Assembly: GCA_020137815.1 (NCBI GenBank)
Contig: CM035353.1
Location: forward strand, 4,340,001-4,404,000
DNA length: 64,000 bases
Source: Hormiphora californensis
Lineage: Eukaryota; Animalia; Ctenophora
Direction: 5' to 3'
The translations under genes were made by a program, and so were the position numbers. The notes under the pieces are model-generated. The model was not told where the DNA came from. It saw only the letters and a program-made list of their open reading frames with translations, and searched no databases. Every line of letters starts with the position of its first letter. The stretch's first letter is position 1. This document shows, one piece after another, positions 2,322-64,000 of this stretch.

Positions 2322-2470
2322 AACGAGATGTACCGCCAGCAGGCCGAGTTTTACTACCACCAACTCGGCCAGGTCTCTCAAGATCTCTATAATGTGTATC
2401 ACAGGGTTGCCGCCTATCTCTCCCCACCTTCCGCCACGCAATTCCATCCCCCCTTCCCACCGTACCAACC
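2322..2470 (+). pseudogene. 3' fragment of bZIP-like/coiled-coil accessory gene
   Basis: EMYRQQAEFYYHQLGQVSQDLYNVYHRVAAYLSPPS matches the C-terminus of ORF 46823-47284. Confidence 0.8.
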
Positions 2471-2668
2471 GTAAGTCCTCCCCACTCTATAAACATACGT
2501 ACAATCATTTACCTATCATTTACAGTTTGGAATCAATATGACATAAAATATACAGTTTGGAATCAATAAAATATTAAATAAAATTGTTACAAATACGAAT
2601 TAAAATTATTACTATCACACACAAAAAAAATCTAATAAAAGATTTGTCTCTTTTTATACTGTCTCTAC

Positions 2669-3259
2669 CTAGTTTTGTGGCGGGGGTGGTCTTCTTCTTC
2701 TTATGACACTTTCCAGGGAGGGGTAAGGTGATAGTCGTGGGTCCAATGGCCGTACCTTTTTAATAACCAGTCTGTTCCACCCTGCTCCAGCTATGTAGCC
2801 CGTCCTCCATATCTCCTCCTCTGTCTCGCTGCCAGTTTCCTCTGCCTCCTCCTCTCCTTCTTCCATTTCCGGGGCCTCTTCTTCTTCTCCTTCCGGGGCC
2901 TCTGCCTTGGCTGGTGTCGTCTCCCCCTCCTCTCCGTTTTCCGGGGCTTCCCTTTTGATAGAGTCCGCCTCTTCTCCTTCCGGGGCCTCTGCCTCCGCTG
3001 ATACCGTTTCCTCCTCCTCGTCGCTGTCTGGGGCTGCCTCCTCTCCTTCTCCCAAATCCGGTTCCTCTTCTCTGATTAAACGCGTCTCCCCCTCAGGTCT
3101 TGTCTCGTAGATGGCCACGTTTGGCCCGGACGAGATCCCATCGATAATCATTTGTCCACCGTCTGATGTCTGGTATCTAATGCATGGAATCCTTGTCACC
3201 CCGCTCAGCTGAATCTCCATAGCTGAATCTCCAGTGCGTAATGTTAGGTTCATCATCAC
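2669..3259 (-). CDS. Acidic (Glu-rich) accessory protein with conserved N- and C-terminal blocks
   Basis: Paralog of 47447-48070 (MNLT...EI...G.T.IP.IR; WRT.YIAGAGWNR.VIKKVRPLDPR.SPYPSLES.IRRRRPPPPQ); preceded by branch point/acceptor ctaatccgaccccttgcag. Confidence 0.8.
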   Translation of the reverse strand: MMMNLTLRTGDSAMEIQLSGVTRIPCIRYQTSDGGQMIIDGISSGPNVAIYETRPEGETRLIREEEPDLGEGEEAAPDSDEEEETVSAEAEAPEGEEADSIKREAPENGEEGETTPAKAEAPEGEEEEAPEMEEGEEEAEETGSETEEEIWRTGYIAGAGWNRLVIKKVRPLDPRLSPYPSLESVIRRRRPPPPQN

Positions 3260-3377
3260 CTTGGCTGCAAGGGGTCGGATTAGTTTTTTCTAAATTTAAT
3301 TGCTAACTGCTAACTGCTATTATGAATTCTAATTAACTCAGATATATTTATGTAATTGTAAACCAGGGGTTAGCAAG

Positions 3378-3395
3378 CTTGATATGAGGGCTCCA
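3378..3395 (-). promoter_or_regulatory. Putative primer-binding site TGGAGCCCTC
   Basis: TGG 2 nt after the inferred LTR end (AGTAGA-GA-TGG); same at 48187-48204; absent after the copy ending at 56428. Confidence 0.6.
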
Positions 3396-3834
3396 TCTCT
3401 ACTGAGTCACGCATAACCCCCCTCCATAGCTCCGCTATGGTGCTCAGTACATCTCTACTCAAGGATAGAATATCAAACACGGGGTTGTGGGTAATAAATA
3501 GATAAGCAACTACAATATGTTCTATACCCTTATATATATATTCTCACTCTAATAATGGCACTACTAAATGTAATAAGAGCACTGGTATCATATCTAGCTA
3601 GCTTCTATGTATAAGTATATAAGTAAATCAACACGGGCTTTTGGCAGGAAGAGGAGCGGAGAGCATGGCCAGGCAATAGCTCTGAGGTAGGCTGGTTGAG
3701 AAGGGTTTCCTCTGGGTTTCCTCTGGGTTGGGTCTCCGACAAAAGACAAATGGCAGCTAACAGCCCTGCCTTATATAGTCTCCGGAAAATGCAAAATAAG
3801 TGTGACGCTGGGCGTCACACTTAATCGGTCCCTA

Positions 3835-35145: not shown

Positions 35146-35149
35146 TTAA

Positions 35150-35589
35150 CTACGACAGATTGGTAGAATGGAAGGAGAAAACTGGCAAGAGGTATCGCGG
35201 TGCCACTGCGATCACGATTGTTGCAGGTAGAGACAAGCAACCGGAGACTTTCGATCAAAGAGGTCGATAAGTTTAAGACTGTCTCGGCAGGGGCCCGCCA
35301 GGCAGCAAAGACGTTGATATATGAGTCAACGGCCCCGATCAGAGACGCCTTGATCGGCAACGCACCGTTAACCATGGTTCTACGTGGAATCGACCGCTCC
35401 ATCGGTACTTTTTACCGTTATGGGAGTGATCTCTCCTTCCCTTTCAAACACATGGAAGAAAATCGGGAGGTACCAGGCCCATCCCAACCAGAAAACCACT
35501 GGAGGAAAGCCTCTTCCCTCAACAAGCCCAGGAGCTCGAGCGCCAGCCGAGGGGCCAGGAGAGGCAATGGGAAAAGAGGGAGGTATTGA
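35150..35589 (+). pseudogene. Unknown coding exon interrupted by the foldback
   Basis: 129-aa ORF; acceptor ttttcctcag at about 33742 joins it once the foldback is removed. Confidence 0.3.
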
Positions 35590-35968: not shown

Positions 35969-36789
35969 CCGTGTGGCCCAAATTAAAGGGAGGGTACGTT
36001 GGCCTTCTTTTCACCCAGAAGTTTAATTTCAATCACTCTGATATTTTGACACAATGTCTGCATGGGTACTCACTACTCATTCGAGGAATCCGAAGTTTCA
36101 GCCCTCTGGACAAAAGTTCATTTTTTTCGACCGAATGAACATTGAATGAACACCAATATGGGACCAAATTTCGGTACCAAAGTTTCACAAATTTGTTTGG
36201 CTATCGATTTCCTTTCAAATGGGACCAGTTTGAGCTTAATTGGATCACCACAAGAATCACAGTGATCCGTTTTCTAAGCCTAGGATAAGTCATGTGATCC
36301 CCATCAAATTATGACGTGTTAGCAAGAGAAATGAATTTTAAGATAGAGAGCTTAAATTCCAGCTAACATCAAAATTGATCAAGAGTAGTGGCCGTACATA
36401 TTTTTAGCGCCTGAATTTACCGATTTCTGGTCAAAACAGGTCAAAATCGATGTTTGGTAAAAAATATCATCTTTAAATAACTTATTTCACCCACTAAACT
36501 TGATTCAATTTTAATAAAAGTGCAGATTGCCATTTGTTGATACTTGCTCTAATGTATGGCGGTTTTTGAAATAATAAAATCGAATTTAATCAAGAGAAAA
36601 CCTCAAAAAACCCGAAAAACGAAAAATTGAGTTCATTAATGAACTTTCAACTTTTATGATTTGAAACTTCGGATTCCTCGAATGAGTACCCATGCAGACA
36701 TTGTGTCAAAATATCAATTATCAGAGTGATTGAAATTAAACTTCTGGGTGAAAAGAAGGCCAATGTACCCTCCCTTTAATTTGGGCCAC
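35969..36789. mobile_element. Tc1/mariner-type MITE
   Basis: TIR of about 130 bp (gtggcccaaattaaagggagggtac); right end clipped. Confidence 0.8.
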
Positions 36790-41335: not shown

Positions 41336-42660
41336 CTATCCCCTCCGCAGTAAACTCTCTAACCCTACAGACCATATCCATTTGCATCCGAACCAAATAT
41401 TCCTAGTTTCTTGGACCGTTGGGAGTGGGTGCAAATTAGACACCGTAGCGTCATTGAGTAGCCTGAAATCGATACACATTCTATTCTTTCCATTCTTCTT
41501 CTTGACTATCACTAAGGGGGACCGATAAGTAGCTGTGCTCGGTTCTAACACTCCCATTTCAATCATGTCTAGAATCATCTCTTTAGCCGTTTCGAAGCTG
41601 TGCATGGGTATGGGTCTATTTTTGTTAACAACAGTGGCATTTTCTTTAAGTTTTATCTCATGTGTATACAGGGTAGTTAGACCCAGTTCCTTATCTGAAA
41701 GACTGAAGATTTCTTGGTATTCCTTCACCAATTCCCGAACTTGAGCTTTCTGCTCCGGCGTTAGTAGAGGGTTGTCTTCGAACTGGAGTTTTTGTAGTAT
41801 AGCTTCTACTCTTCTTTCCTCTCCCCATTCCCAAGTGGGTATATCCGATTTCCAGTCTCCTTCGGCCAATTCAGTGACCGTTCCTACCACATCTCCTGTG
41901 GCAAAGTGCACACTCATGGGCTCGTCCCCCTGTCCCGCATTCACTGGGATCGCTGTCTCTGCACCTGTTAGTGTAACAAGACAGGTACTCTCCCCGCCCC
42001 CCACTTTGGAGCTGTAGAAGCATGTAGCCGGAAATGAGATCTCGCCCTCAATCTCGCATGTAATTGTTCCTTTTCCTTGTAATGTGTTATCTCTTTTAAG
42101 TTTCACATTTGCGACTCTGGATGGTCCTCGTCTGACCTTCATTATTGTTGATTGCTGGTCTTCCAGCATTAAAGTTAAGTCATTAAAGTTCAGCTTAGCT
42201 TTTGTCTGTTCCAAGAATTCAGTTCCTAATATAATTGTCTCTACAATACCAGCAATAATAAAGCGTACATTTAGCATTTTTTCTCTAACTCTGAGTTGGA
42301 GTTTCGTCTGTCCTTCTACAGCTAGCCCTCCTCCTCCAGCTGAAAGGAGGCTCACCTTTGTGTCCTCTCTTTTTTTGTTTTTTAACCAATCCCCCATTAT
42401 ACGGGAAGATATCAGATTATATTTGGATCCTGTGTCCACTAAGGCGGGGATCTTTCTATTGTCTATTTCTACCACTAAATAATAGTGTCCGTCTCCTTCT
42501 GAGACATTGCCTACAACTGAAATGTTCCTCACTATCTCCTCTTTTCTAGTTTCCGGCCCTTTCGTTTTTATCTCCGCTTCCTGAGTCTTGATTGGTTCCT
42601 GATCTCCCACCAAGTTCTCTCCAGGGCCCTCTCCAGAAGCGGATATTAGTTTGATGGAGC
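41336..42660 (-). CDS. pol: Gypsy pol: aspartic protease plus RT N-terminus, 3'-truncated; -1 frame relative to gag
   Basis: ALVDTGS, ILGTEFL, YRSPLVIVKKKNGKNRMCIDFRLLN, HPLP. Confidence 0.95.
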
Positions 42661-44343
42661 CTGTCTAGGTTGCATTCGCTGGGCTGGGGGGTATCTATTA
42701 TCTTGTAACGCTCTTTCCACTGCATCATTTGGTGTGTTCCTTGTTGTTTCTCTGCATTGGGTCGAGATATGCCCTTCCTTGTTGCACCTGTAACATCTCA
42801 CCTTAGGGCATCGGTTTGAGAGGTGTCCCTCCATTCCACAGGTATTACACGTCATAGGTCCCCTGTTATTCCTTGGTTGGTTCCAGGATCCTCTTCTCTG
42901 CTGTTGGTACCCACTCGGACCAGGTTGGTTCCAGGATCCTCTTGCCTGCTGCTGGTAACCGCTCGGCCCCTGCTGGTTCCAGAGCGCATCCCTAGGTGGT
43001 TGACGATACCTGTTGTTCCCAGGTTGATTCCACTGTCCTTTCCTCTGTTGTCCGGCATTGTTCTGGCCTCTTCTGGGGCTCTGGTTTCCTTTTGCTGAAC
43101 TGTAGCAGTTTCTAGCCAAGTGTCCCGTCTTTCCACAGTTGTAGCAGGCCCCCTTTTCCTGAATTGACCTTGCTTCGCCGCATTCCTTCCGGAGATGTCC
43201 CTCTTTTCCGCAGTTGTAACACCGTTTTGTGTTCTCGACCACATTGAATACCATGCGGCTCGGAGTATCCTCTGCCGGTCTTGCCTGATATACCGCTTCA
43301 AGTTCTATGGCATGTTTGACTGCCTCCTCAAACTCGTTATGTTTGGCTTTCAGCAGATCCTTTCCGATTCCATCATCTCGCACCCCCAGGGTGAATACGT
43401 CCAGCATTACCGATTTCCTCATATTCTCCTCTTCATATGCGACCACTGCATCTTCTGCTAGTCTCGTTGCGAAGTCGGACATTCTCTCTCCTTCTCTTTG
43501 CCTCGCATCAAACAGCTTTGATCGAGATTGTGCTTTTGGATGTACTTCTTCCAATTCCCTCACTATCTCGTTCAATGCCTCTTCTACCGTTGGCCTTGGG
43601 TCTCTTTCTCCTAAGTTCATCCGAAGAACCCTCTTTTGTGCTCTTGCGTCGAGGTATGAGGTCAGGAGGTTTATTAGTGCCCAGCTGTCGTCAGCAATGT
43701 TAGATGCCTTGGAATAAATCTTGAATCGTGCCAGGTACGATCTGATGTTATCAATCCCAGAAGCAAATTTCGGGGGTCTCATAGCCACTGCTGTTGTTCT
43801 CTCTCTCGGCCTGTTTTCTGTAGGTACTGGCAAATTGTCCATTACTCTGGTTTGCGCGTCCAGGACCCTGCGACTGACCTGATAGTTGTTCTCCAGTGCA
43901 GTGTATGCTCCGTGCATTCTTCTTATCTCTCTCTCCAAGTTTTCCACCTGGTCCGATTTCCTGTGAAACAAAGCCAGTTCAGTTCTTAAAGTGTTCCACA
44001 TGTTATCTCCGTGTTCGAGATCTGGGTTCAGGAGTCTGGCTGCTTGTTGATATTCTGCTATCTCCTGGTCTATCATATCTCCTCTCCCGATCTCTCCTTC
44101 CTGTAGTCTTTGCCTGTCTCTCCTCCTCCTTTCCTCTGCATGCTCCATCGCTATTTCCACCTCATCTCGTACTCTCTCCTGTTGGCCCTCGTTCTCTTCT
44201 TCTCCGCCCCTTTCTTGTTGTACAGCTGCAGCCGCCGCCACAGCCACAGCCGCATTTGCATTTTCCAACTGTTGCTGTTCTACCCTTAGTTCATTTTCTA
44301 ATGCCTCCAATTGGAGTCGATCTTGCTCTTGTTGTCCTTCCAT
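42646..44343 (-). CDS. gag: Gypsy gag with four CCHC zinc knuckles
   Basis: Coiled-coil N-terminus, PPKF, Q.EGE...F..RL, four CX2CX4HX4C motifs. Confidence 0.95.
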   Translation of the reverse strand: MEGQQEQDRLQLEALENELRVEQQQLENANAAVAVAAAAAVQQERGGEEENEGQQERVRDEVEIAMEHAEERRRRDRQRLQEGEIGRGDMIDQEIAEYQQAARLLNPDLEHGDNMWNTLRTELALFHRKSDQVENLEREIRRMHGAYTALENNYQVSRRVLDAQTRVMDNLPVPTENRPRERTTAVAMRPPKFASGIDNIRSYLARFKIYSKASNIADDSWALINLLTSYLDARAQKRVLRMNLGERDPRPTVEEALNEIVRELEEVHPKAQSRSKLFDARQREGERMSDFATRLAEDAVVAYEEENMRKSVMLDVFTLGVRDDGIGKDLLKAKHNEFEEAVKHAIELEAVYQARPAEDTPSRMVFNVVENTKRCYNCGKEGHLRKECGEARSIQEKGACYNCGKTGHLARNCYSSAKGNQSPRRGQNNAGQQRKGQWNQPGNNRYRQPPRDALWNQQGPSGYQQQARGSWNQPGPSGYQQQRRGSWNQPRNNRGPMTCNTCGMEGHLSNRCPKVRCYRCNKEGHISTQCRETTRNTPNDAVERALQDNRYPPAQRMQPRQAPSN

Positions 44344-44686
44344 TCTATAAAAAGTTGGCTTTATTAGTTTTATTCCTTATAAAGTTGTTTTAGTCATTAA
44401 ATATTATTCAATTGTCCAAACGATATATGTCAGTGGTTACAATCTATTCTTAAGTAAAACATCCTCGTGTTACGTTGTATAAACTTTCCTTTTAACAAAT
44501 CATATTCTCTATTTCACACGATTGTTTCAAATGATAAAATGTATTAAACGATTGTTTCACACGCCGCTACTTAAGTTTATATTACTTAAATATATCACAT
44601 ATTTTCTCACATTTTATATGTCCTTGCATATTACTTTTAATTTATAAAAGCAATTCTCTATCTTCACTGGAATTAATTGTTGTTGA

Positions 44687-45400
44687 TCATACTATATGAC
44701 CCTCCAATCTCCTGTGATTCGCTCTAGCCCTATTCAGTGCTGTTGCATATAACGTAAGCTCTCTTAGTGTTTTTGGAGCATTGTCTATCTCTATTCTCAA
44801 TCTAATTGCTTCTTCCGCATTCTCTGTCGAGATGTGATATGTCAATAGATGTTTTATACAATTCAATACTCCGTACGATGCTCTCCCATCTGCTATTTCT
44901 CTCTCGTCCTCTCTTAGTGTTTTGAATTTATAGTAGCACTTTATTCTTAACCCATCCTCCGAGTCAGTGTTCCGTGCCCCGACGACCAAATCATTCACTG
45001 TCATGTTGTCTCTCAGTCCTATTCCCCCGTTCAATAGGCGATGAAAGTCTCTGATTAGTTCCTTCCACCACCATATAACATATGTCAAGCAATACTTTTG
45101 CAAGACCAGTGGTTCGTTGGCCTCATATGTTACTACTTGACTTACTTCTAATCTCTCCGTCTCTTCGGGTACCGGTGCTATGAAGGTTACATTACCTCCA
45201 AAGAAGTCCAATTGTCTAATCCTCGATGACTCCCTATAAATGGTATCCGGCCCCCATAATATGTGTGCCTCTATTGTTTCGTGGATTGTTCCTGGTATTT
45301 CCATCACTGTTAGCCCTACCCGGCCAGCTGATCCTCGTTGTTCCTGTGCCTCAGTGTAAGTCTCCTCATCCTCTGATTCTGTGTCGGACTTATTAACCAT
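44687..45400 (-). CDS. ORF0, 237-aa accessory protein upstream of gag
   Basis: Intact ORF; homolog at 18140-18700. Confidence 0.75.
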   Translation of the reverse strand: MVNKSDTESEDEETYTEAQEQRGSAGRVGLTVMEIPGTIHETIEAHILWGPDTIYRESSRIRQLDFFGGNVTFIAPVPEETERLEVSQVVTYEANEPLVLQKYCLTYVIWWWKELIRDFHRLLNGGIGLRDNMTVNDLVVGARNTDSEDGLRIKCYYKFKTLREDEREIADGRASYGVLNCIKHLLTYHISTENAEEAIRLRIEIDNAPKTLRELTLYATALNRARANHRRLEGHIV

Positions 45401-46291
45401 CCTTGCTATAATGTGTACCGGTTAGTGATGTATTTTTTCCATCATGATTCATTAACACTCTCTGATTCTTATTCATAAACACACTATTACATCATAATTA
45501 TTAATTTACAATCATAACTTCCACACGAATTATATTACTCTCACAATTAATAATTAGTACAACTAGTCCTTTCTCCGCAACTACAGAATATGGCGGACTT
45601 GGTAACCGTAGAATAGCATTCCCTTTAATCTTGTATACGTCTCCTCACAGAGCCATATCAGATCTAGGGGGTTGTTACCTAATATAAATAATACTTTCAT
45701 TTCATGTTTCATACACTGCAAATACCGCATCCAGTCTGGGATAGGGTATTACATTATTGTCTGATACCTCCCGCTATAAAAAGCTTAAGCTATAATCAAT
45801 AAATCATACCAATTACCACACGCCACATACCACCCGCCCTGCCTTGCAGGTCGGGCAGCGTGCGTTGTATCGAACCACCACCGCGGGCGTGGGGCGATCC
45901 CCCACATTCTCACCTGTCCCCACTGATTGTACGTCTGAAGCTTTCACTTACCTTACTGGGGATGATTCGATGGCTCACCAATACCGCTTTCATGTGTCGT
46001 GCCTCTGTGGTGTGTGCCTCTTTGTTGTCCCTGCCTGTGAACTGTACCCCACATAGAATACAGTTATTCTCCTCTATTCCGTCCTCCTTATTCAGCCCTG
46101 GAAATAATATTAGTCTTTAGCCCAGTGATCTCTATTATACTGACACGATCGATGTGGTGGGAAAGTAGAGCACGAAAACGCGTAACCGCGGCCAGTCAGG
46201 AAGCTAGCTTAGGGCACTAGTTCATGTCAAACGAATGCAATTTTTGCTGCGCGCTATACCAAGTGTGTGTCTCATTTATACTGCTTCTTCA

Positions 46292-46651
46292 TCACGTTAA
46301 CGCGATAACAAGCAGCGCTGTGAGGTTATATACACTTAGTTTCTCACCGAAGTGTTGGAATATTAGTCGTCTCCAGTGAGGGCGGTCCTCATCCTTGCAG
46401 CTTCTGTATAGTTTCTCCCAGTCTTCTGGAAGCTCGCCGGGAATATCTACCTTACATTTCCGGGCTGGGTCCTCGTAGTTTTTCAGCATCTCCTCTGTGA
46501 GCGCCCCTACTTTCCCTTGGCGGAGGCGTTTCTGATGTTTCTTGCTAGCGATGTGTTCTCTAGCCTGTGATTTGGTTACCATCTCGCCTGTCCCACACAT
46601 TAAACATGCAGCCATCATATCTGCTAAATTGAGGGTAGCTATGGTTACCAT
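46292..46651 (-). CDS. U1/matrin-type C2H2 zinc-finger protein (119 aa)
   Basis: CLMC-x13-HIASKKH; the HxxSKKH ending is typical of RNA-binding zf-met/JAZ fingers. Confidence 0.72.
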   Translation of the reverse strand: MVTIATLNLADMMAACLMCGTGEMVTKSQAREHIASKKHQKRLRQGKVGALTEEMLKNYEDPARKCKVDIPGELPEDWEKLYRSCKDEDRPHWRRLIFQHFGEKLSVYNLTALLVIALT

Positions 46652-46822
46652 GGATCACTCTGTGGCATTCTATACATATAACATCCTGGTGTTTCACAAC
46701 TGTCGCCCATTATCGATAATGACTCCAAGCTACGCTCTCCTTCTCTCTCTCCCTCTCTCTTTAACACTCCCTGTACGTTCAGTCTCCCTGTACTCTGTGT
46801 GTTCTCTCTAGCTCGGCTCTTT

Positions 46823-47284
46823 ATGTTGTGTCCTCACTGTTCTACCCCCATTACTCATCCCAGCCCATCTTCTAAACATCCACCCACTCCTTCCAATCTT
46901 AGTCCTCAACCAGCCCGTCGCCGCTACTGGAAGAATTACCGACGTAAAAAGGAGCAAGAAGTCGATCAGCTGAAAGCCCGTATATCTCAGCTTAAAACGA
47001 CAGTTGATCGGCAGAATGGGGATGTAGACGGGCTCAGCGTTGGACTCCTAATGGCCAACGCCGAACTGGAGGAGGCAACACAACGGGAGACCTCGCTTGC
47101 AGCCGAGTCCCAGCGGCATCTTGAAATGGCCGAGATGTACCGCCAGCAAGCGGAGTTCTACTATCACCAACTCTATCAGGTCTCTCAAGACCTTTACCGT
47201 GTGCACCAGAGAGTTGTGACCTATCTCTCCCCACCATCCGTCACACCTCTCCATCCCCCAGGGCCTCCACCATACCAGCCGTAA
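46823..47284 (+). CDS. bZIP-like basic/coiled-coil protein, antisense to gag-pol
   Basis: CxxC N-terminus; NYRRKKEQEVDQLKARISQL (R-x9-L, heptad Leu); four copies in the window; lacks the invariant bZIP Asn. Confidence 0.75.
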   Translation: MLCPHCSTPITHPSPSSKHPPTPSNLSPQPARRRYWKNYRRKKEQEVDQLKARISQLKTTVDRQNGDVDGLSVGLLMANAELEEATQRETSLAAESQRHLEMAEMYRQQAEFYYHQLYQVSQDLYRVHQRVVTYLSPPSVTPLHPPGPPPYQP

Positions 47285-47446
47285 GTTATTACCACTCTAC
47301 AAACATATTGCACAATCATTTATTTTTTTAAATAAATTTAAAATCAAACTAATAATTAATAATAATTAATAATAAATAATACTATAAAATATATGCTGAG
47401 CAGTGTCTCTCATAGTCATAGTGTCTCTATAGGGTGGTCGAGCTAC

Positions 47447-48070
47447 CTAGTATGTGTATTGAGGCGGGGGTGGTCTCCTCCTTCGGATGGCGCTCTCGAG
47501 GGACGGGTACGGTGACATCCGTGGGTCAAGGGGCCGGACCTTCTTGATCACCATACGGTTCCAGCCTGCCCCGGCAATGTAGCACGTCCGCCAGGTCTCC
47601 TCCTCTGCCTCCATATCGCTGTCTGGTGCCTCTTCTCCTTCCTCTAATTCCAAGGCCTCTGTCTCCCCCTCGTTTTCGTCTTCTGGGGCCTCTATTTTCA
47701 TCGGGTCAGCCTCTTCTCCTTCTTCCTCTTCCAGGGCCTCTGTCTCCCCCTCGTTTTCGTCTTCCGGGGCCTCTATTTTCACCGGGTCTGCCTCCTGTCC
47801 TTCTCCCTCTTCCAGGGCCTCTTCTTCGATTGGGTCTGCCTCCTGCTGTCCTTCCTCCTCCGGGGCCTCTTCTTCGATTTCTTGCGTCTCAACCGATTCC
47901 ACCCTCTCAGGTTTACCTCCCCCGAAAATCTCTATCTGGGGCCCGGATGTGACACCCTCGATATCTATTTCCCCGCCGGTGAGTCGGATTCTCGGTATCT
48001 TGGTGATGCCTTTCATCGTGATCTCCATTGATGGTCCAGATTCTGGAACTCTTCTGATCGTAAGATTCAT
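47447..48070 (-). CDS. Acidic accessory protein (207 aa)
   Basis: Paralog of 2669-3259; acceptor ccccttacag|ctATG. Confidence 0.82.
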   Translation of the reverse strand: MNLTIRRVPESGPSMEITMKGITKIPRIRLTGGEIDIEGVTSGPQIEIFGGGKPERVESVETQEIEEEAPEEEGQQEADPIEEEALEEGEGQEADPVKIEAPEDENEGETEALEEEEGEEADPMKIEAPEDENEGETEALELEEGEEAPDSDMEAEEETWRTCYIAGAGWNRMVIKKVRPLDPRMSPYPSLESAIRRRRPPPPQYTY

Positions 48071-48186
48071 AGCTGTAAGGGGTCGGATTAGTTTTTCAAT
48101 ATTCTGCTAAATGTAAATGCTAATTGCTAACTACCAGTGCAAATTCTAATTAACTCAGATATAATTGTAAACCAGGGGTTAGCAAG

Positions 48187-48610
48187 CTTGATAAGAGGGC
48201 TCCATCTCTACTGAGTCACGCATATTCCCCCTCCATAGCTCTGCTATGGTGCTCAGTATAATATCTCTACCCAGGGATAGAATATCAAACACAGGATTGC
48301 GGGTAATAAAGAAATAGATAATCACTACAATATGTTCCATACCCTGTTATATATTCTCACTACAATTATGGCACTACTATATATTATGTAATAAGAGTGC
48401 ACTGGTATAATATCTAGTTGGATTCTATAAAGTATATCAACGCAAGCTTGATGAGAGCAGAACCGAAGAGCATGGCCAGACGATAGCTCTGAGGTAGGCT
48501 GGGTGAGTAGGGCTGCATCAGGGGTGGGTCTCCAACAAACGACAAATGGCAGTACCCACAGCTCTGGCTTATATAGTCCCCTGAGAAGGCAAAATACGCG
48601 AGACGCTAGC
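48187..48610 (-). mobile_element. PBS (48187-48204) and 3' part of the 5' LTR (48207-48610)
   Basis: Nearly identical to 56428-56822; TATATAA at about 48570; truncated at 48610. Confidence 0.7.
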
Positions 48611-48978
48611 CGTCGGAAAAGGAAAACAACAACGGATACCGAGGAAGAAACTTTAACCCTCCCCAGAGAAACAACAACTATCAAGGGAGGAACTATGGGA
48701 ACAACTTCAATAATAACAACAATTGGAGGCAAGACAACAACAATTGGCGACAAGACCAGAGCAGATACCAGCAGGGCCAACAAAACTATACGTGGCGACC
48801 GACTAACAACACAAACCAGAATAAACAACGCCAACCCATCAACATGATGCAACAACAGATCACAGCGCCTATGGCACAACTAGCCATGAAGACAAGCCAG
48901 GCAGCAGCGGATTCAACGAGCAGGAGAGGATCGATCATACAACATGGCACTGGGGGAGAACATCTTCAATGACCAAGC

Positions 48979-49012
48979 TTTAAACTAATCATGCCTCGCC
49001 ACAGACCGGGGC
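48979..49012 (+). promoter_or_regulatory. -1 programmed ribosomal frameshift signal
   Basis: T TTA AAC before the gag TAA, short spacer, stem gcctcg/cggggc. Confidence 0.75.
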
Positions 49013-51226
49013 TACCACTAATAGCTACACAGCGCGACACCGAAATTTATTCGCGCATTCTAACAGTTGGTAATAAACACACCAACTCACTTTTCGCAGC
49101 AGGAAAAATTAATGGCTATGAAATAAAATTGTTAATTGATAGCGGTGCAGTCCTGAACTGCATGTCTAAATCAATGCTCGAACAATTAAAAATCCCAAAA
49201 AGCTTAGAACAGACAAACTACAACTTATCGGAGCACGGGTCACAACTTAAGAGTGTTGGGATCTATTAGGAATACAATCATTCATCTAGGGAGCCTAAAA
49301 TTCACGCTTGACTTCATCATCATTGACGAGATCATAGCACCACTAGTCCTAGGCTCAAATTTCCTCATAGGTAATGCGTTAGTGGTGACCTAGAGTGCGG
49401 TTCTCAGAAAAGGGAATCAACAAGTCCCGATTCTGGTTCATAAAGCTAGAGACACTGCAATACTCGTTAGAACACGAGAGGACACCACGTCCCTGTAGGA
49501 CAACAGGCTATAGTCACATGTGTAGGGCAAAACACAAATGCACTTAATAGCACCATAACCAATGGTACGTATCGTACACTCTAGCACATTATTCTGGCCT
49601 AAAACAGAAAATGATCCACCGTCTTGCTTAGTAGATATAGTACAATCTAAAATACCCATGCGCTGGAAAATACTGATGCAGAAGCGAGAGTATTTCTTTC
49701 CAGCAGGCACAATTTTTGGTTATCTCACACCGGTAGAAAAAGCAATTAAGAATATAAGTGAGGTTATGTCACGACTAGAAAACTAAGTAAAGTCATTCAA
49801 GAGCTGAAGATTGACAGCAATGAATACCTGAGCAACGAGAATAAACGAGACTTAAGACTTAGTTAGCGAGGATATATAGACATTTTTCATCTCATAAATA
49901 TGATATCGGGCTCACAAATGTACATTGACTAGAGGCTGAATTAAATTTGAAGGATGATACCCCAGTGGCACTACCACCTAGACGCGTTCCTATACATCTC
50001 TTACCACAAGTTCGTAAAGAGATACAAGCCCTTTTAGAAATTGGGGTCATACAACCATCACAATCGGCTTATAGTGCACCAACAGTGATAGTGAAGAAAA
50101 AAGGGTCTGAGACGTGCGAATGTGCACTGATTACAGACAGTTGAATGCTAAGACTGAGTCATTCACATCTAGTATACCACCGTAGACGTAGTTGTCGCTC
50201 ATGTAGGGGAAAGGAATTCTATTCATCCTTGATCTCACAAAAGGTTACATGTCTTTACGGATTAAGGAATCCGACAAACATAAGAATGCATGGAAAGTAC
50301 CAGGAGTAGGTCATTTGAGCAAAATCGTTGGCTTTGGACTTAAAAATGCACCCAGCTGCTTCTGCCAGGCTCACTATGATTTTTAAATAGCTTCCAAACA
50401 ATATCCAAGTGTATTGGACGATATACTTATTGGAACGAATTCGATAGATCAAATGCTCACTAATCTCAACAGGTGTTTGAATGCACTAGGCAAGGGGGAT
50501 TGAAAATATCACCCCACACGTGCTCCTTGTTAGTAAGAAAGTTAAATTTTTAGGCGCATGGCTTAGCAAAGAAGGCTACGAAGCAGATAGAGAAAAGAAA
50601 AGCGGTCAGAGAAACTCCATTCCCTAACACCAAGAAGAAGCTAATGAGCTTTTTAGGGATGATAAATTGGTTCAGAAATTTACTAAAAAATTGTGCAGCT
50701 GAAATAAACCGCTTACCGACCTACTAACTGGGTCAAATTACAACATAAAACCAACACCCGAGGCCCAACAAGCTTTTGAAATGATAAAGACAAACTCACA
50801 AGTGTCCCTGTTCTTGTTATGGCTGATGTCAAGAAGAAATTTATTTGTGGTGTGATGCGAGCTTCAAGGATTAGGATGTGCACTAACTCACAAATTTATT
50901 GATCAAAATGGCAATGATTACTTTAGACCCCATACGGAAGTAGAACACTCACACCAGCCGAACAGAAATGGCCGGTCGTTTAAACTGGAGATGGAGAGCG
51001 GTGCTTTGGGCCATAGAAAGTATGATCATACTATACGGGGCTCAAGAACCGTTCGTAGTTTGACTGATATGAAATCACTCACACAATCGGCTATTTAAAT
51101 AAAGCAACATGTAGATACTCTTTCTTGGGCCATCAAATTATCCTAACACATACACCTGGAAAGATAACCAATTAGCCGATTTCTTGTCTAGAAACCTACC
51201 CCAAAGTCAGGCGACCTTTGGAACTA

Positions 51227-51397
51227 CAGTCGGACCCCGATTTAACGGCAACCCTCGGGGGAAAGGATTTTGTCCGTTAAATGGGGTGTCCGCTAAATCG
51301 GGGTCAAATATGTTAATTTCCCATATATCGGGGGAAGATTATGCTGCCGTTAATCGGGGTGCCGCTAAATCGGGGGCCGTTAAATCGGGGTCAACTG
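51227..51397. mobile_element. 171-bp Tc1/pogo-type MITE, TA TSD
   Basis: cagtcggaccccgatttaacggc...gccgttaaatcggggtcaactg. Confidence 0.88.
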
Positions 51398-54276
51398 TAT
51401 TGGGAAGACAAAATCAAGAAACAAGAAGAATCTCCAAAACGGTCATCAATCTTATCAAAGACGCTATAAACCTTAAAACCAGTGAAGAACCGATTACCCC
51501 ATTAGAAGAAATTATCACTTTCAACCAGAATAGGGATACTAAAGAGATGGGTACTTTTGAACAGCCAATAGCTCTAGAATTTCAAGATCATGAACCACTA
51601 TATCAAGCGCAAAAAACGACGAAATTCTAGCTGAAGTCAGGTCATGGCTAATTCAGAAAGAACGGCCAAAACAAACTCGACTCAAATTTTTCCAAAGAAT
51701 TGAAAGTTTACTACAATAAATTTGATCGACTCGCTAACCAATCAAGGCATAGTTGCTTTGAAATACATGACTGAGTCCACTGGAAAATTTCGCTGTCTTC
51801 TTTGTACTCCCGAGGCACTGAAACAAAGCATATTAGAATTAAAACATTAGAAAGCTAGTCATCAGGTATTGTAAAAACCAAACGGTCAATTATGATGAAA
51901 TTCTGGTGGCCGGGTATGACTGAACAGATCACGCTCCATGTTAAATCTTGTGAAGAGTTTTTTTCCATAATAAAGGGTTTCATAAAAAACCTAAAATGGT
52001 AATGAAACTATATGAACAGCGAAATGTACCCAATTATCGCTGTTACATTGACAGTATGGGCCAATAACGAGAAATTCGGGTGCCAAAAAGCACATTTTTC
52101 TATGTACTTGTGCTTTCACTAAGTACGTAACGGTGCCGTTGTTAGCGATATCAAAGCACCCACGTTAGCAAAAGCTTTTCTGAACACGACATATTACCTT
52201 TTGGCGTACCAGAAAAGGTCCTTAGTGATCAAGGATATCAATGACGGGGCAGATTTATCCAAAATTTTTACAGTCTGATGGGAATAACGAAGATTCGAAC
52301 GACACCATATCACCCAGCCACTAACCTAGTGGAAAGGGTAAATAAAAGTCTAAAAGCTATAATCTCAAAATTAACGCACAATAACCCTGACCAATGGGAA
52401 AAATATCTACATAGCTATCTCGTCCTACCATGGGACAATACACCAGGCAACAGGGTACACACCAAATTACTTTTTTTGGTAGAGAGTTGAGAGCACCCAA
52501 CGACCTGATTATGAGACACCTCCACACAATTTTATAGGGATGAATCACATTATGCCCACGATTTGTATTGGAAAATGAGAGGGGTTACGGCCTAGAAAAA
52601 CAAGAATTATTGCATTATGTATTCATAATGCTGTGTTTCCCTGCCCTACCGTTTCACATGTCAGTGACATTGTCACTGCCAACAGGATCAAGGCTTGGCT
52701 CATAAGTAATGTGAGATGCATACGATCTAGCTGTCAGTATACTTCTCACATAGCTTAGAGTTAGCTAACTCCAATAACCTGACACTTGCTAACCAGCTTT
52801 TGACATTCCAACTTAACTACTTATCTAACATCTCACACTCGACTCGCAAGATGAAAATGGTATGTAACACGCGAAACGCGCGGCAGAGCATTCATGTTTT
52901 GTTGAGTGGCACGCGCACACAGTCCATCAAACTGTGTCAATGAGTTGTTTGATGAAGGAGTAGCTCGTCACTGTGCGCGCGGCTCTAGTTGCTACACCGT
53001 TGCCCTCGCAACGAAAGTGTGACCAAAAAATGTCCCTCTACCGATTAGTTAGTATACCAAAATGTCGTTTTTCGAATTCTAACCCTGCTATGCCTTTTTA
53101 CAAAGTAAAAAGGCATCCGGGTGAATGCCTTCGGCATTCACCCGGGCAGGGAAAAAATGCCTGAAAACCCAACAAATCCAAGCTAAAAACTTTATGACCG
53201 ATCAGACAAAAATCACAAAGTATAAAGTTGGTGATATGTTGCCATACTGGCACCCTTAGCCCCTAAAGAAATTTCAAATAATAAATTCAAGTCAAGATTT
53301 AAAGTGCTATATCGAATAGAAAAAGTTTATATCCGACCATAATTACCTCATAAAACATGTGGAAACGGGAAAACAGAAAGTTGTTCATCACGATTTAATG
53401 AGATACGTCCCTGAAACACTAGCAAATAAACTCACTGTTCATGAAATTTGGGAAGATCCCGAAGATCAACCCATCTTGCCATACTCAGACAGCGACGACG
53501 AACCAGTAATAAGGGATAAAGGACCGACAGTAAAAAAGAAATCACTCAGACCAAACCAACACAAGAAACAACAGAACGAACAACGGACAAACAGATTGTA
53601 ACACAAAATACGGAACCCTTCCAGCCCTTCCTGAGAAGGTCGAACAGATTGATGAAAATACCCGCATACCTAAATGATTATGACACAACCGGACCAAAGT
53701 AAAACACATATACTTTTAGGGATGCTGAGCGCAAACCATATTTTGTAGATACATTTGGTTATAGTAACATAATTCTTGTATATTTACATATTTACATTGA
53801 CATTCTAGACCAGTTCAATTCTAGATACATGTGCCTCAGCTGGTAGCAAAAGGTTTAGCCACTAAAATTTAATAAAGATAAACATTGAGGCGGTGCTGTT
53901 AAAGTTAAATAAAAACATCTTAATTGTTCCGTAAGAGAGCGTACCTACCTGCAATCGAATGTCTGTAAAGCCATATAAGTATGCGAGTGTTAGAAAAGTT
54001 GAGGTCATGCTGAGAAAGTTGACGACTGCGATCGATATGAGCATGTACATAAACCGCTTTGGGCCACCACCATCTACAATAAAGGGAATCGACACCAAAA
54101 TGGACAGGTTTCAGGGTGCAGGGCCAACCAATACTGACCAAGTATGTCAGTGAAGCGGGGGCATAGAGAATAGAAAGTACCGTTCCAAGAAGGGTGTAGT
54201 TAAATGGTAGGTAAGTGAAGGCATCGGATTTGGATGAATCGAGAGAGAGAAAATGGCTGTAATCTAATTGGAGCGT

Positions 54277-54963
54277 GAGGAAGTTTTGTTTTCTCCTTCC
54301 GGCTGGACAAATGAGTAGACGTAGATTATTGTAGAATAACGCAGTGCACTATAAAAAGTTTCATAATAAGACAGTACCCGATTTGATTTTTGAGATTATA
54401 CAACAGAGTCACGTATCTTATATAGAAAGATTATAGAAGCATATTATATTAACAGAGAGAAGCCTACTATTAATTTAAAAGAAGAGTTGACTGATCTATC
54501 TAGTTCCTTATTCTAATATTATCCGTTTTTAGTATTTTCTAACGGCCATATTGGTCATTGAGTATTTTTAGCTAGATATCTTTTGAGCAGTCGCGTGATT
54601 CCTATCTTATTTCACTATCTGATCTTATTTTTTACTATTTAAACCCCGTTTATTTCCTAGTCTTTACTTTTTGTTTTATTTTTTCCAGTCCCGCGTGTAG
54701 TTTTTCAACCTTTTACTATTTCACTAAATTAGCTTAGCTTTAGAATTTCCAGTAATTTTTATTTTACGATTGGTATGTGTACAGTTTTTTCTAACATGTG
54801 TATTCCGTTTATTATAGCCTGAAGATGGTGCTGTGCGCCGAAATTGATAGCGTTATTCTACAATAAAATCTACGTCTACTCATTTGTCCAGCCGGAAGAG
54901 AAAAACAAAACTTCCTCACTGATATGCGGCTAATAAACAATCAACCGATCCTTATTCTCTCCA
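54277..54963 (+). mobile_element. 5'-truncated Penelope-like element with inverted pLTR segment, 12-bp TSD
   Basis: GIY-YIG-type tail RKIIEAL.INREKPTIN; 54276-54342 inverted relative to 54850-54919; taattggagcgt at 54265 and 54964. Confidence 0.8.
54810..54870 (+). ncRNA. Minimal hammerhead ribozyme
   Basis: CUGAAGA-stem II (uggugc/gcgccg)-GAAA-stem III (uug(a)uag/cuacaa)-UA, inside the pLTR. Confidence 0.7.
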
Positions 54964-56427: not shown

Positions 56428-57356
56428 TCTACTGAGTCACGCATATTCCCCCTCCATAGCTCCGCTATGGTGTCAGTATAATATCTCTACCCAGGGATAG
56501 AATATCAAACACAGGATTGCGGGTAATAAAGAAATAGATAATCACTACAATATGTTCATACCCTGTTATATATTCTCACTACAATTATGGCACTACTATA
56601 TATTATGTAATAAGAGCACTGTTATAATATCTAGTGGATTCTATAAAGTATATCAACGCAAGCTTGATGAGAGCAGAACCGAAGAGCATGGCCAGACGAT
56701 AGCTCTGAGGTAGGCTGGGTGAGTAGGGCTGCATCAGGGGTGGGTCTCCAACAAACGACAAATGGCATAACACGCTCTGGCTTATATAGTCCCCTGAGAA
56801 GGCAAAATACGCGAGACGCTAGGCGTCTCACAATCGGTCCAAGCCGTCTATCTCTTCCCCTAGAGACAAGTGTGCGCAATAATCGGCTCTCCCTCTCTGT
56901 GATGATAGACATACGAGGCGCTGATCCGCTATAAGGTTTCTCCCTCTCTGCTACCAGTCATGAGGTAAACAAGCAGAGACAAGTGTGCGCACAGCAGAGA
57001 CAGAGTGTCCATACAGCTCTCCTCTTCGCTGTGGTTAGGGAAGGATCTATTAGATCTCTCTTTTCTCTCCAACGGTTAGAGAGTCTGACTTCAGGCTGGT
57101 GAGAGTCTCGTCATGATATGCACGCGGGATACCGCGTACACTCCCACCCGTAATTCTGGAGGTAGCCGTCCGCGTTTGAGCTTTGAAATCGGCCGAAGGT
57201 CGAGTAGTCTGGTCGAGTAGTCGGGTCGAGTGGTCTGGTTCACTCCACCCGTAATTCTGGAGATGGCCGTCTGCGTTTGAGTCTTTGAAAAAAGGTCGAG
57301 TAGTAGTCTAACTACTCCGTTTTGCCGCGGTTTGTCGCGCTACACCCCCCCTCCTC
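56428..57356 (-). mobile_element. PPT (57345-57356) and 3' LTR (57344 to 56428, TG...GA)
   Basis: gaggagggggg|TGTAGCG; homology with the other LTR copies ends exactly at AGTAGA 56428 with no PBS after it; possible junction at 57139. Confidence 0.65.
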
Positions 57357-58267: not shown

Positions 58268-58269
58268 TA

Positions 58270-60077: not shown

Positions 60078-63000
60078 TCACCGCCGATACTTATAGTTTA
60101 TCTTGGCCTTATTCTCCAATCTTTTAGACCGCCTAGGTGGGGGACTAGGTAGTCTTGTTTCATCCGGTCCCTCGTCACGAAGTCTCTTTTCTTGTCTATT
60201 CTCTGTCTCTAAAACTTCCTCCATTTCCTCGTCCTCTGCATGGTCGCTCCTTCTTAGCACGTTCTCTCTATCTATGGTATTCAGTCTTTGGGCTATCGCC
60301 TGTATTTGTTGCCAATCAGGCTCCTCTTCTCTGGCTGTGGTCGCGCTTCAAATTTAGGCGGTTGCATGACTACCCTCGTTCCCTTTGTTGGGGTCGAGCT
60401 CTTTCGTATTCTCCAAACGTCGTTGCTTGTCTTGCTTTGGTAGTGTCCATGGTGCTATCTAGCCCTTGGTCTGTCCGCTCTCTGTCACTCGGTCTTGTTA
60501 AGGTTTCGACTCTGCCCGTCCATTTGTTTCTTCTCTAGCCTGATGGCCTGGTTGTTCAATTCCATTTATTCTTCTTCATATTGACGGTCTGTCTGTGGCC
60601 CTCTCACCCCGCTGACATCATGGACTATTCTCCATTGGACGCTCTGTCGGGGTCTTGCTGGTTTGATTTTCAGCGGAGTTTCAGTCCCTGTATTTGTACC
60701 CCCCTGGGGAGAGGGTTGGTACCTCCTGAGTGGCTTCTTTTCTCCTTTCCTTTCGGTACTTTCCAGGTGTAGAATGGTTGTGGGATCATCCATCAGAATT
60801 CGGCGTCCCCCTCTCATTTCATTCATTTTATCCCTCATATTTGTCAGCTGGAGGTACCTCTGGAAATATGGTGTTGGTATGCCCAACCCCATTCTAACAA
60901 TTCTTCTCTCTCTGTACATCTTCCTCGGAATATTTGTTAGTCCTTCTCCCAGGAGCTATCTGTGGGAGGTTCCAAATAGAGCTTTCTTGGGTTCCTCCCC
61001 TTTCTCCTCTGACCACGTTTTTTCCTGGTGGCGAGGCGTTAGGGGTTCTATTGGAGGGTCCCGGTCTCTCCACCCGTTGGTCGGAATTTGGTCTATGGCT
61101 ATCCCCCGGGGTTGTTCTCCTTGGCGTTCCTTGTCTGTTTTTGAGATGCTCTCCCTCCGGTGTTCTGTTATGTGGTTCTAGTCTATCTGGTTGTGAGTCT
61201 GATACCCTATGTACATCCTCATTTCCTATGGAAGTACCCAATGCCAAGGTTTTTGCTGCAGTTGTATATAGATCACGATCCGTCAGGTCCGTCTGTAGGT
61301 CCTGCTGTCTACTTGGGCTCCCTAGTTGACTTCTCCCTCTTCCTGGACTTGGTCTCCTAGTAGTTGGTACTGTCCAGCCACCTCACGCGGTGCTTGGTGT
61401 ATCTGACTACCCTTCCCTTGGTCTATTACCCGCTCTGCTACAGAATCCGCTATCCGTTCTCTCTGTTCTAAGCGGGGATCTAGTTTCCTCTGAGTGGGTC
61501 AGTTTGTTCTCTTAGATCTTCCCCTCCTTCTTCTTCTCCAAACTCTTCTTCAAAGGCCCGGGTTAACTCTTCCAGTATTCGAGTTCGCCATGGGGTTGAA
61601 ATTTGCGTTGACCCTTCACTCCGGGCTGTCCTATTGTTACCGTACTGGGGTGTTTTCCCCAGCTCTCTCCCGTGGCAATTCTCTTGGGTGGTATCTTGGG
61701 TAGTCTCTGGTGTGTTCTCTTGGGGGGACTCTTGTATGGTTTCGTGGGGGGACCCTTGTATTGTCTCTTGGGTGGTCTCTTTCCCTATCATTCGGAGGTG
61801 TCCTTATTTCCCCCATTGATATTCCAGAGTCTCTCGTATTGTTTTGAGGCCCCATTCCTGTTACAGCCTGATTTGCCTTCGCTTGAGCTCTTGTTACCCT
61901 TCGATCTCCTGCAGCATTTCCTCTATCTCGCTGTCGTCCTCAGGTTCTGTTTCTTCCTCCTCAGTTATGCTTGCTTCTGCGGTTTCCTGCTCTTGTTCTC
62001 CTAGATGTCCTCTCATTCCCTCGGGGATCTTCCTTAAGTGGTTTCGATGAACAACGTATTTACAGTCACCCGTTTTTCTTTTCCAATCCTGTATTCTTTG
62101 CACCAGAAAATCGTGCTGATCCCAAGCGTCAATTATAATGTATGGACCCTTAAAGTTAGTTACTAACTTGTAGTAATTATTAGATGTGTCTTTCGGCCTG
62201 TAGATCATCACTTTGTCTCCCACTGCTAGGCTCACGGCTTGTTTATTCCGGTCGTATATCCTTTTTGAAGACGGTGTGTCATTCTAGGTTGTTACCCGCC
62301 AATCGGAATATCTTTCTAAGTTCTTGGTACATGTCACTTGCCAGATGATGCTCACTCTCAAAGAACTTTGTGATCTGGTCTGGAATATGACATCATCCAA
62401 TCCAGTCATCTCTCTTCCGGTCATTAACCGGAAAGCTGAATACCCTGTGGACCTGTTTATCGCTGAGTTTACTGCTAATTGTAGTCGCGGTAGTGCTTGC
62501 CTCATTGTCCGGGATTATCCCCCACTGTTTCTGTAACAGATGTAGTAGCACCTTATTGAACCGCTCTGCTATTCCATTCTTCCTTGGGGATGGTACGGTG
62601 CACAGTACTTTTCTTCCCCTAAGAGAAATAGGTATTCATGACCTCCGCCGTTTTGAAAGTCGCAGCATTATCAGTTACTAAGATCTGGGGCGGTCCCCAG
62701 ATGCAAACGTAGTTATCTAGAAAGCTTTTGCTATGGTGGTAGCCTTCTCATTAGCGATGGGCACGAACACTACAATTTCTGTGAATTTGTCAACCATAGT
62801 AAGCACCTTGGAAATCTTCCCCTTTCGATATGTACCACGTCCATGTTAACACACATGCCTGGGTATTTATATGTGTATGGTTTCAACTCCGGTATGGGTT
62901 GTTTCCGGTAGTACTGGTTAGTCTTGAAGCAATCGCTGCAGGTCTTGCAGAACAATCGTACTTCTTCTTGCATATTAGGAAAATAGAACTTCTGTCTTAT

Positions 63001-63999
63001 TCTACTTTCGGTCTTCTCGGACGACTGGTGTGCTCCAGCCACTGTGTGGCTTGCCTCTATGACTTTGACTATTTGTGACTCTGGTACGCAAGTTAACCAG
63101 CGGAACTCTGTGAGTCCCGGGTTACCATATCTGATGCAAATGGTATCTTGATCCCCTATCTTCAGCCGACTCAGCTTGTTATAGTATTGTCGTTCCTGAG
63201 GTGGTAGCATGTTGGGATCTCCTGCTTTTTCCTCTTCTCTGATCCACTTGCGTACACTTTTAAAAGTAGGGTCTTCCTTAGACTCTCTCAAGAATTCCTC
63301 GTCTCCTATTACTTGGGCTGGTTTTGTTTCCTCACTCACTTGATTCACAACTTTAGACTTATCTTCTTCTTCTTTACCCGCTACTGCATCCTGGATTCCT
63401 TGCTTGATGTAATCGTATAGCCCTGATGAAGACTGAGGCAAGGCTGGTCTGCTCAGAAAATCAGAGACCACGTTCTCTTTCCCTGGTACGAACTTGATAT
63501 CAAACTCGTACTCCGACAATTCCATACTCCATCGGATTATAGCATTGGCCGTTGATTTCTTTAGGAAAGTCCCGAAACTCATGGCTTTGCAATCGGTCTG
63601 CAGAACAAACCTTCTCCCATATAGATAGAATCTCATCCGGGTTATCGCCCAGTATGCAGCGTAGAATTCTTTCACGAAAGATGGCCAGTGTAATTGTGAG
63701 GGGTTGAATACTTTAGATCCATAATGGATGGGATGCATTTTTCCATCGTCTGATTCCTGCATCAAACAGAACCCCATACAGTATCCTGATGCGTCCGTAA
63801 ATATATTGAGCGTCTTGTTAGGATCCGCCCAAACCAAGCAGGGCGGGTTCGTCAGGGCGGTTTTCACGGCCTCGAAGCTGTTTTTAGCTTCCTCCCCAAA
63901 TTCAAACTTTTCCGATCCTTGGAGTAGCGAGGTTAGGGCTTTAGCTTTTTCTGCGAATTTAGGTACGAACTCCCTAAAATACCCAGCTAATCCCAACAC
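60078..63999 (-). CDS. pol: Gypsy pol 3' half: RT thumb, RNase H, integrase (HHCC, core, GPY) and long low-complexity tail; frameshifted after 62770
   Basis: LGLAGYFREFV, FTDAS, LQTDCK, VPGKENVVSDFLSR, H..AGAH..CKTC, FKGPY, terminal RRSKRL..KINY. Confidence 0.95.
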
Positions 64000-64000
64000 T

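Follow-up and report, generated by a model that had tools for sequence, protein, structure and literature searches.

A stretch of 64,000 nt from Hormiphora californensis (CM035353.1), called the window throughout, carries at 41380–48614 a copy of a Ty3/Gypsy long terminal repeat (LTR) retrotransposon with a cassette of four accessory genes, referred to here as acidic, antisense, zinc-finger and ORF0, ahead of gag. The architecture is real, conserved and unusual, and is far more elaborate than that of ordinary elements of this kind. The copy is a broken one of an element of probably ~15 kb, in which the four conserved genes stand between a primer-binding site (PBS)-like site and gag, and the sequence comparisons make it very probable that all these parts belong to one element. 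Acceptor-like sites were observed 1–11 nt before all five start codons, gag included, and two extra predicted exons, with a second finger, were recognised in the zinc-finger gene; both observations are new in this analysis. The fuller proposal, in which this architecture is combined with separate messages made by spliced-leader trans-splicing of the host onto an acceptor of each gene, is given an even chance of being correct.

Layout and classification of the element

On the minus strand, the LTR end at 48207 is followed by GA and TGGAGCCCTC, the acidic gene, the antisense gene (plus strand), the zinc-finger gene, ORF0, gag and a truncated pol (Table 1), in the order and at the coordinates given by an earlier note on this DNA. 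Of this LTR (48207–48614) only the 3′ 408 nt are present, the upstream part having been replaced by an opposite-strand Gypsy remnant, and the joint 48614–56832 is found in other copies. The LTR piece contains a TATA-like TATATAAG at 48575–48568 (minus) and terminates in CAGTAGA. The remnant that adjoins it (48615–53900, plus) is frameshifted and separate, with a gag end, protease, reverse transcriptase (RT) and integrase, and holds miniature inverted-repeat transposable elements (MITEs). The PBS-like site begins with TGG and its 10 nt are identical in two copies; the 64-kb window has no tRNA gene and hence no match for it. The LTR termini are TGTAG...GTAGA at four of the four ends seen (57344–56428, 48207, 3398 and 19050, minus), and for the end motif four copies were found, with 0.87 expected for 5 matches in the window. 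The ends TG...CA are typical of LTRs and not obligatory; here they were not found, the termini being conserved as TG...GA.

A near-identical LTR without a PBS had also been placed after pol and the polypurine tract (PPT) at 56428–57344. Its identity (96.6%), the lack of a PBS and the purine tract were confirmed, but the pol of this sibling copy lies 2.7 kb from the PPT, MITE included. The repeat of LTR, PBS, acidic and antisense genes at 3398–2322 was likewise upheld, with an alignment over 2324–3816, although just the last ~50 antisense codons are left there. The order of gag with CCHC knuckles, protease, RT, RNase H and integrase was pieced together from two copies linked by the 96.6% identical LTR, and the RT catalytic core is in neither pol piece. 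The best of 7 PDB matches of the sibling pol was Ty3-G Gag-Pol (E 6e-20), with retroviral RTs at E 3e-9 or weaker, which is a match ranking and not a tree. Together with the 917-nt LTR with its TATA-like box and the purine tract before the 3′ LTR, these features identify the element by sequence as a Ty3/Gypsy LTR retrotransposon and not a retrovirus. There is no env-sized frame between pol and PPT and no membrane segment in the cassette proteins (top 19-residue hydropathy 1.24), and the cassette was rejected as a form of env. An open reading frame (ORF) before the sibling PPT (58660–58277, minus), split by a 763-nt MITE and 32% like a frame at 21500–21400, is a possible 3′ accessory gene.

The length of the element comes to 15.1 kb as the sum of parts from two copies, the unseen RT core being put at ~520 nt; this figure and the neighbour links in diverged copies agree with the family of roughly 15 kb proposed earlier. 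The cassette copy is dead, because it has half an LTR and a cut pol, yet its frames are open. Beyond 41381 other contigs continue with sequence unlike the window.

Table 1. Features of the cassette copy and of related copies in the window
Feature	Position	Strand	Basis or remarks
5′ LTR, 3′ part only (408 nt)	48207..48614	-	96.6% identical to 56428–56827 over 408 columns; three-way alignment
PBS-like site TGGAGCCCTC	48195..48204	-	2 nt past LTR end; same 10 nt in copy at 3398
Acidic gene, 207 aa	47447..48070	-	repetitive acidic middle, conserved C-terminus with basic run
AT-rich zone between convergent acidic and antisense genes	47285..47446	.	AATAAA on both strands: minus 47324; plus 47331, 47371
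Antisense gene, 153 aa	46823..47284	+	basic patch, then one long predicted helix (residues 29–135)
Zinc-finger gene, first exon	46292..46618	-	finger C-x2-C-x13-H-x5-H; CAG 2 nt before ATG
Predicted finger exon 2, second finger C-x2-C-x12-H-x5-H	45957..46097	-	branch-like CTAAT and CAG acceptor; phase 1 at both ends
Predicted finger exon 3, ends in stop	45581..45735	-	phase 1, behind CAG
ORF0, 237 aa	44687..45400	-	CACTAAC and AG 1 nt (or 5 nt) before ATG
gag, 565 aa, four CCHC knuckles	42646..44343	-	Pfam zf-CCHC E 1e-19; branch-like CTAAT and TAG 1 nt before ATG
5′ pol (protease, RT start), truncated	41380..42664	-	-1 frame to gag; Pfam protease matches
Whole 3′ LTR of sibling copy, 917 nt, TG...GA, without PBS	56428..57344	-	repeat comparison; purine tract at 57345–57356
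3′ pol of sibling copy (RT thumb, RNase H, integrase, long broken low-complexity tail)	60078..64000	-	Pfam RT_RNaseH E 1e-28, Integrase_H2C2 E 1e-13
Diverged second copy: LTR end, PBS, acidic gene, end of antisense gene	2322..3831	-	68.5% over 1,589 columns, E 6e-162

Linkage of the cassette to gag-pol

The stretch 45400–46300, for which a check of the junction had been proposed earlier, is covered by a source-sample contig (5,015 nt, X2 record 9) that spans 41831–46845 with 0 differences. The junction at 45.4–46.3 kb is therefore real, and an assembly chimera was rejected. Linkage was further followed in organism B, a second species label whose samples are covered by runs X7, X9 and X10, among the matches listed (the best 32 and 24 of two alignments). 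In run X10 (records 4/5/6), gag and ORF0 stand on one contig (43589–44318 and 44587–45438), the finger gene and the antisense start on another (46292–46866), and the acidic gene, PBS and LTR on a third (47537–48421). A 9,020-nt contig from the same sample (X7 record 9) holds 44587–45526, 45934–46133 and 46292–46521 collinearly; the intervals between them measure 393 and 155 nt, where the window has 408 and 159; on the gag-pol side, 7 kb in front of these had no alignment seen. A second sample of organism A (X5 record 18) also links gag to ORF0. Thus every neighbour link recurs in some diverged copy: gag–ORF0, ORF0–finger and finger–antisense in organism B, and LTR–PBS–acidic–antisense at 3831–2322.

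The earlier note had held that a gag-pol with its own PBS or LTR near 45.5–46.2 kb would count against the cassette; no such arrangement was seen, and the organism B contigs keep the gag–ORF0–finger links. With the junction spanned as well, both refuting conditions named in the note turned out in favour of its reading. A separate LTR or PBS within 45.4–46.3 kb was rejected, since there is no in-window repeat partner, the 10 loose TGG sites have no LTR-like sequence and the pieces retained there are predicted exons. No related loci were returned among viral contigs and metagenome contigs.

The four accessory genes

Synonymous-biased change is seen in three of the four accessory genes, acidic, antisense and ORF0. 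Against the copy at 3253–2675, the acidic gene gave a ratio of nonsynonymous to synonymous change (dN/dS) of 0.19 over 184 codons and 0.05 in the last 50 codons (range 0.05–0.29), and the antisense gene gave 0.14–0.22 against four in-window fragments (Fisher P 0.005 to 5e-7). When all six frames of two antisense pairs were compared, the synonymous-rich frames were the plus frame and one minus frame sharing its third positions, the latter having 4 and 9 stops. Among the listed differences, 15 of 21 were synonymous in ORF0, 7 of 12 in the antisense gene and 8 of 12 in gag, where ~22% of sites are synonymous; every difference inside each ORF was counted among those listed (40 of 1,196 and 40 of 265).

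The acidic protein contains 29% D/E and had one outside match, P0003; scans of Pfam and NCBIfam gave no family for it or for the ORF0 protein. Recent tandem duplications of 1.8 kb (97–99% identical) at 9250–15000 carry C-termini of the acidic gene.

The antisense protein, whose structure model has a predicted local distance difference test score (pLDDT) of 82, had been called bZIP-like. Atlas features favour this label (0.90, at lead level), while Pfam bZIP_1 stays below threshold (13.9 bits against a cut-off of 27.6). Its heptad reads L50 L57 Q64 L71 A78, and Arg occupies the position at which the bZIP basic region has an invariant Asn. By sequence the protein falls short of bZIP membership, and the name serves as a lead only. 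None of 29 candidates at near lengths was a relative, longer or shorter forms not having been searched. Fragments of related cassettes at 19064–16500 (minus) and 30444–31620 (plus) contain an LTR end, a weakly ORF0-like frame and short Cys-rich exons with donors; their coiled-coil gene is on the same strand as these exons, which suggests a wider clade with variable cassettes.

The zinc-finger gene, described earlier as a single ORF, probably has three exons, as the former “spacer” behind that ORF holds two more predicted in-phase exons, one with a second finger. Both predicted junctions are in phase, the candidate donors (after 46348 or 46336 in exon 1, and after 45957) and both acceptors being all phase 1; the unspliced form stops at 46292. 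The region 45934–46133, that is exon 2 with its splice sites, is ungapped in organism B (X7 record 9) between flanks that are not alignable, the finger gene itself is ungapped in run X7, and part of exon 3 (45619–45666) is retained in runs X7 and X9. A one-base deletion at 46633 in run X5 lies between the ATGs at 46651 and 46618, so that the latter is favoured as the start. P0004 is 60% similar to the finger protein over 50 residues and the similarity extends past 46348; therefore the later donor or the unspliced form is favoured.

As for the earlier name “U1-type”, the pattern C-x2-C-x12/13-H-x5-H is present twice and 3 of the 8 matches from a wide search carry JAZ/U1-like fingers, but Pfam zf-C2H2_2 remained below the cut-off (15.8 and 17.4 bits against 26.9, scanned exon by exon), and a resemblance to JAZ/U1 types is kept as a lead. 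Four other matches (P0005, P0006, P0009 and P0011) are repetitive proteins and were rejected as noise. The motif CASTATAAAWRAGA (CASTATAAA) occurs at 46283, 46142 and 19130 (minus; 3 matches against 0.27 expected), right behind two stop codons and once in an intron, and may be a promoter or a 3′-end signal. Four copies of a Cys exon-like piece of CPGCPGC type, each ending at a donor-like site, lie at 55433–55740, 29512–29732, 9617–9745 and 13847–13975 and had no Pfam match.

The search for ORF0 relatives returned 2 of 391 candidates and no others, 95% and 87% identical and both named Pleurobrachia bachei; Pfam, NCBIfam and Atlas gave no match. A distant relative at 18691–18143 was weak (pairwise E 0.004, 25% over 60 aa; E 0.78 among 1,228 window frames) and was not counted, although this frame is one of four rows in alignment A1. 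Rfam had no matches in 44300–48700.

Acceptor-like sites and the proposed expression of the element

An acceptor-like site was taken as an AG with a CTRAY motif 8–45 nt upstream, or as a YAG with a pyrimidine tract. Such sites end 2, 2, 1 and 1 nt before the ATGs of the acidic, finger, ORF0 and gag genes, and a pyrimidine tract with TAG ends 11 nt before that of the antisense gene. Thus four of the five starts have a site within 3 nt, as compared with 148 of 2,061 window ATGs (7%), and all five have one within 13 nt, as compared with 391 of 2,061 (19%; chance ~2.5e-4). The splice acceptor noted earlier at the acidic gene, a branch-like CTAAT with CAG 2 nt before the ATG, is retained in three copies; those of the other four genes had escaped notice. 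Across the window, 10 of 51 ATGs that open at least 150 codons, the cassette's included, pass within 3 nt, against 97 of 1,493 that open fewer than 30, and the ATG of an env-like gene at 28811 passes likewise. The occurrence of the pattern beyond this element fits a host-wide habit.

A small gene family at 56417–56269, 8720–8560 and ~15890 (minus) starts right behind an acceptor-like AG. Two of its cases follow a leader motif common to the post-PBS region (16167–16180), and the 3′ LTR at 56428 abuts the acceptor-like site of the family directly.

The gag gene begins 3.9 kb behind the PBS and therefore likely needs a spliced message of its own. Between the presumed start near 48547 and gag lie 4,204 nt with 82 ATGs, which would bar scanning to gag, so that gag-pol would be translated from a processed message. 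Poly(A) hexamers follow three of the four accessory genes: in the AT-rich zone, AATAAA follows the stop codons of both the acidic and the antisense gene, and ATTAAA follows ORF0, whereas no canonical hexamer was found behind finger exon 3. In the LTR such a hexamer occurs once in antisense and not at all in sense. H. californensis, of the same family as Pleurobrachia, carries a spliced leader on at least 56% of long reads (PMC8527503).

In the proposed mechanism, each gene and gag-pol would have its own message, spliced onto the acceptor-like site before its start codon, and trans-splicing of the host spliced leader is the preferred route to these messages, while the full-length RNA bearing the PBS would be the packaged template. 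The antisense gene would be expressed as a separate plus-strand RNA whose end lies in the AT-rich zone, and the finger gene would additionally be cis-spliced. Sense-oriented introns would be lost unless the RNA that is copied escapes splicing, a difficulty that Rev-like proteins overcome (PMC10309623). Being small, non-membrane proteins with basic patches, the accessory proteins may act in the nucleus on the RNA and transcription of the element itself, as CERV does for Cer1; the two-finger protein may bind RNA and the coiled-coil protein may be a dimerising transcription modulator. These roles are weakly predicted, from protein traits and the analogy with Cer1 only, and “regulatory” as a name for the cassette remains a lead.

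Alternative explanations

Several observations weigh against the proposal of one element with trans-spliced messages. The acceptor criteria were chosen after the sites had been seen, and in the finger ORF the in-frame ATG that comes first, at 46651, does not pass. The P0004 similarity runs beyond the first candidate donor of the finger gene, and the structure model of ORF0 is unusable (pLDDT 34). No single independent copy with all the links was seen. The bridge between antisense and acidic genes is absent among the organism B contigs listed (47280–47567 is uncovered in X7 and X9); among the matches listed, such an absence proves nothing. In one X7 contig 46519 is connected to 47582, one side of the joint measuring 28 nt and thus falling short of the 31-nt bar, and an X9 contig connects 48224 with 45619; these odd joints suggest rearranged or shorter variants.

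The candidate cis donors GTGAGA and GGTAT in the LTR, kept in all three LTR copies, also count against trans-splicing and lead to the first alternative. According to it, a single donor within the 5′ LTR or leader serves the acceptors of the same element in cis, and transcription of the antisense gene comes from the 3′ LTR as in HBZ. GTGAGA recurs as the first candidate donor in the finger gene, the env of Tor3a is spliced from the 5′ LTR (PMC4402516), and the HBZ transcript, which begins within the 3′ LTR, is spliced (PMC3185765). We nevertheless consider this reading unlikely: no sequence in the leader is conspicuous as a strong consensus donor, the AATAAA behind the acidic gene (sense) and the ATTAAA behind ORF0 fit separate units better, and the leader motif was not found in the LTR (1 match elsewhere, 0.31 expected).

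Internal promoters in the same element, or internal ribosome entry for gag, would make the AG sites incidental or leave them to short leader introns. The env of Tor3b/4b uses such a promoter (PMC4402516), the CASTATAAA motif occurs in excess of expectation, and a GA-rich stretch of 200 nt lies between the divergent antisense and finger genes. The retention of branch-like and AG motifs before the acidic ATG in diverged copies makes this account improbable as a replacement for trans-splicing, with which it is compatible and not exclusive.

A chance nest, that is a non-autonomous LTR–PBS–acidic–antisense unit or host genes beside an unrelated gag-pol, would suit a scrambled window with many fragments, an antisense-like gene in sense orientation at 17720–17450, the lack in the window of any LTR-to-LTR copy, paired LTRs or target duplication, and the antisense–acidic link not seen in organism B, but it is very improbable given the gag–ORF0–finger–antisense links under a second species label with coding parts kept and spacers eroded, the depth of the organism B linkage contig (79.9 against 29–40 for several neighbours), the two distinct ORF0 proteins of P. 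bachei and an organism B pol that is not cut at the breakpoint of the window.

Comparison with known systems

The nearest precedent is Cer1 of Caenorhabditis elegans, a Gypsy/Ty3-type element with an accessory protein, CERV, from a spliced message with an SL1 leader. The spliced accessory message was found SL1-capped and the gag-pol RNA unspliced (PMC3315495), and export of the genomic RNA depends on CERV (PMC10309623). Cer1 differs from the present element in having a single accessory protein, part of whose sequence is common to the N-terminus of Gag, and in a gag-pol RNA that is not trans-spliced (PMC3315495); here four separate genes precede gag, one of them antisense, and gag has its own acceptor-like site. 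Ogre, Retand, Grande and RIRE2 also have conserved extra ORFs in sense or antisense, up- or downstream of gag-pol, but Ogre has 1–2 of them and the plant antisense ORFs lie mostly between pol and the 3′ LTR (PMC7264820, PMC6431247); the available parts of these plant Ty3/Gypsy accounts describe no four-gene cassette with an acceptor per gene. Planarian Burro and the bdelloid ORF3 elements are animal Gypsy-like elements with accessory coding, and one Burro-like case has an upstream accessory ORF; theirs are recognisable polyprotein domains or a single ORF3, whereas here small orphan genes are found (PMC6431247, PMC5408684).

HBZ of HTLV-1 resembles the antisense gene in its orientation, its coiled-coil product with a basic patch and the acceptor ahead of it. 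It differs in lying between env and the last tax exon of a deltaretrovirus, while the gene studied here stands before gag, in an element without an env-sized gene, and its product is below the Pfam bZIP cut-off, so that the two are analogous only (PMC3185765). The same holds for the earlier description “complex-retrovirus-like”, which stands as an analogy and no further, as there is no env membrane-anchor gene, pol is closest to Ty3 and the accessory genes precede gag. Extra ORFs of Oikopleura Tor are expressed from internal promoters (PMC4402516), accessory genes were noted in the Tat and fungal chromovirus clades (PMC2774666), and env-bearing Gypsy elements of ctenophores have been described in a paper whose main text, as far as available, has no mention of splicing or accessory genes (PMC13524379). 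A four-gene cassette before gag or a trans-spliced gag was not found in the literature searched, which leaves subscription journals and repeat-database reports mostly outside.

Other sequences in the window

The window as a whole is a nest of decayed mobile elements and MITEs. Long inverted-repeat insertions of the MITE or foldback kind lie at 3835–5179, 33751–35150, 31974–32740, 57514–58276 and 35973–36789, the one at 3.8–5.2 kb being within an LTR. The env-like gene at 28811–25296 (minus) is a broken, Cys-rich gene of another element, with an acceptor-like AG right before its ATG, and presumably resembles a gB-type env.

Implications for Gypsy elements in ctenophores

Gypsy elements are regarded as units of two or three genes in which the unspliced RNA doubles as the gag-pol message. 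With four genes apparently under selection and 82 ATGs before gag, the jobs of template and message must be split in this element. It is possible, though doubtful, that this is an operon-like retrotransposon, in which the ctenophore leader splits one LTR unit into messages for three sense accessory genes and gag-pol, thereby separating packaged genomic RNA from coding RNA, and in which the antisense coiled-coil protein and the double-finger RNA binder form an independently arisen circuit of complex-retrovirus type in the earliest-branching animals. If the host leader does split the jobs, a transposon would have adopted trans-splicing as its expression system, with five base-exact predicted junctions, at 48072, 46620, 45401 (or 45405) and 44344 on the minus strand and at 46812 on the plus strand. 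Accessory regulation of the Rev or HBZ kind, which among Gypsy elements has so far been shown for Cer1 in the literature consulted, would then reach a very distant animal lineage.

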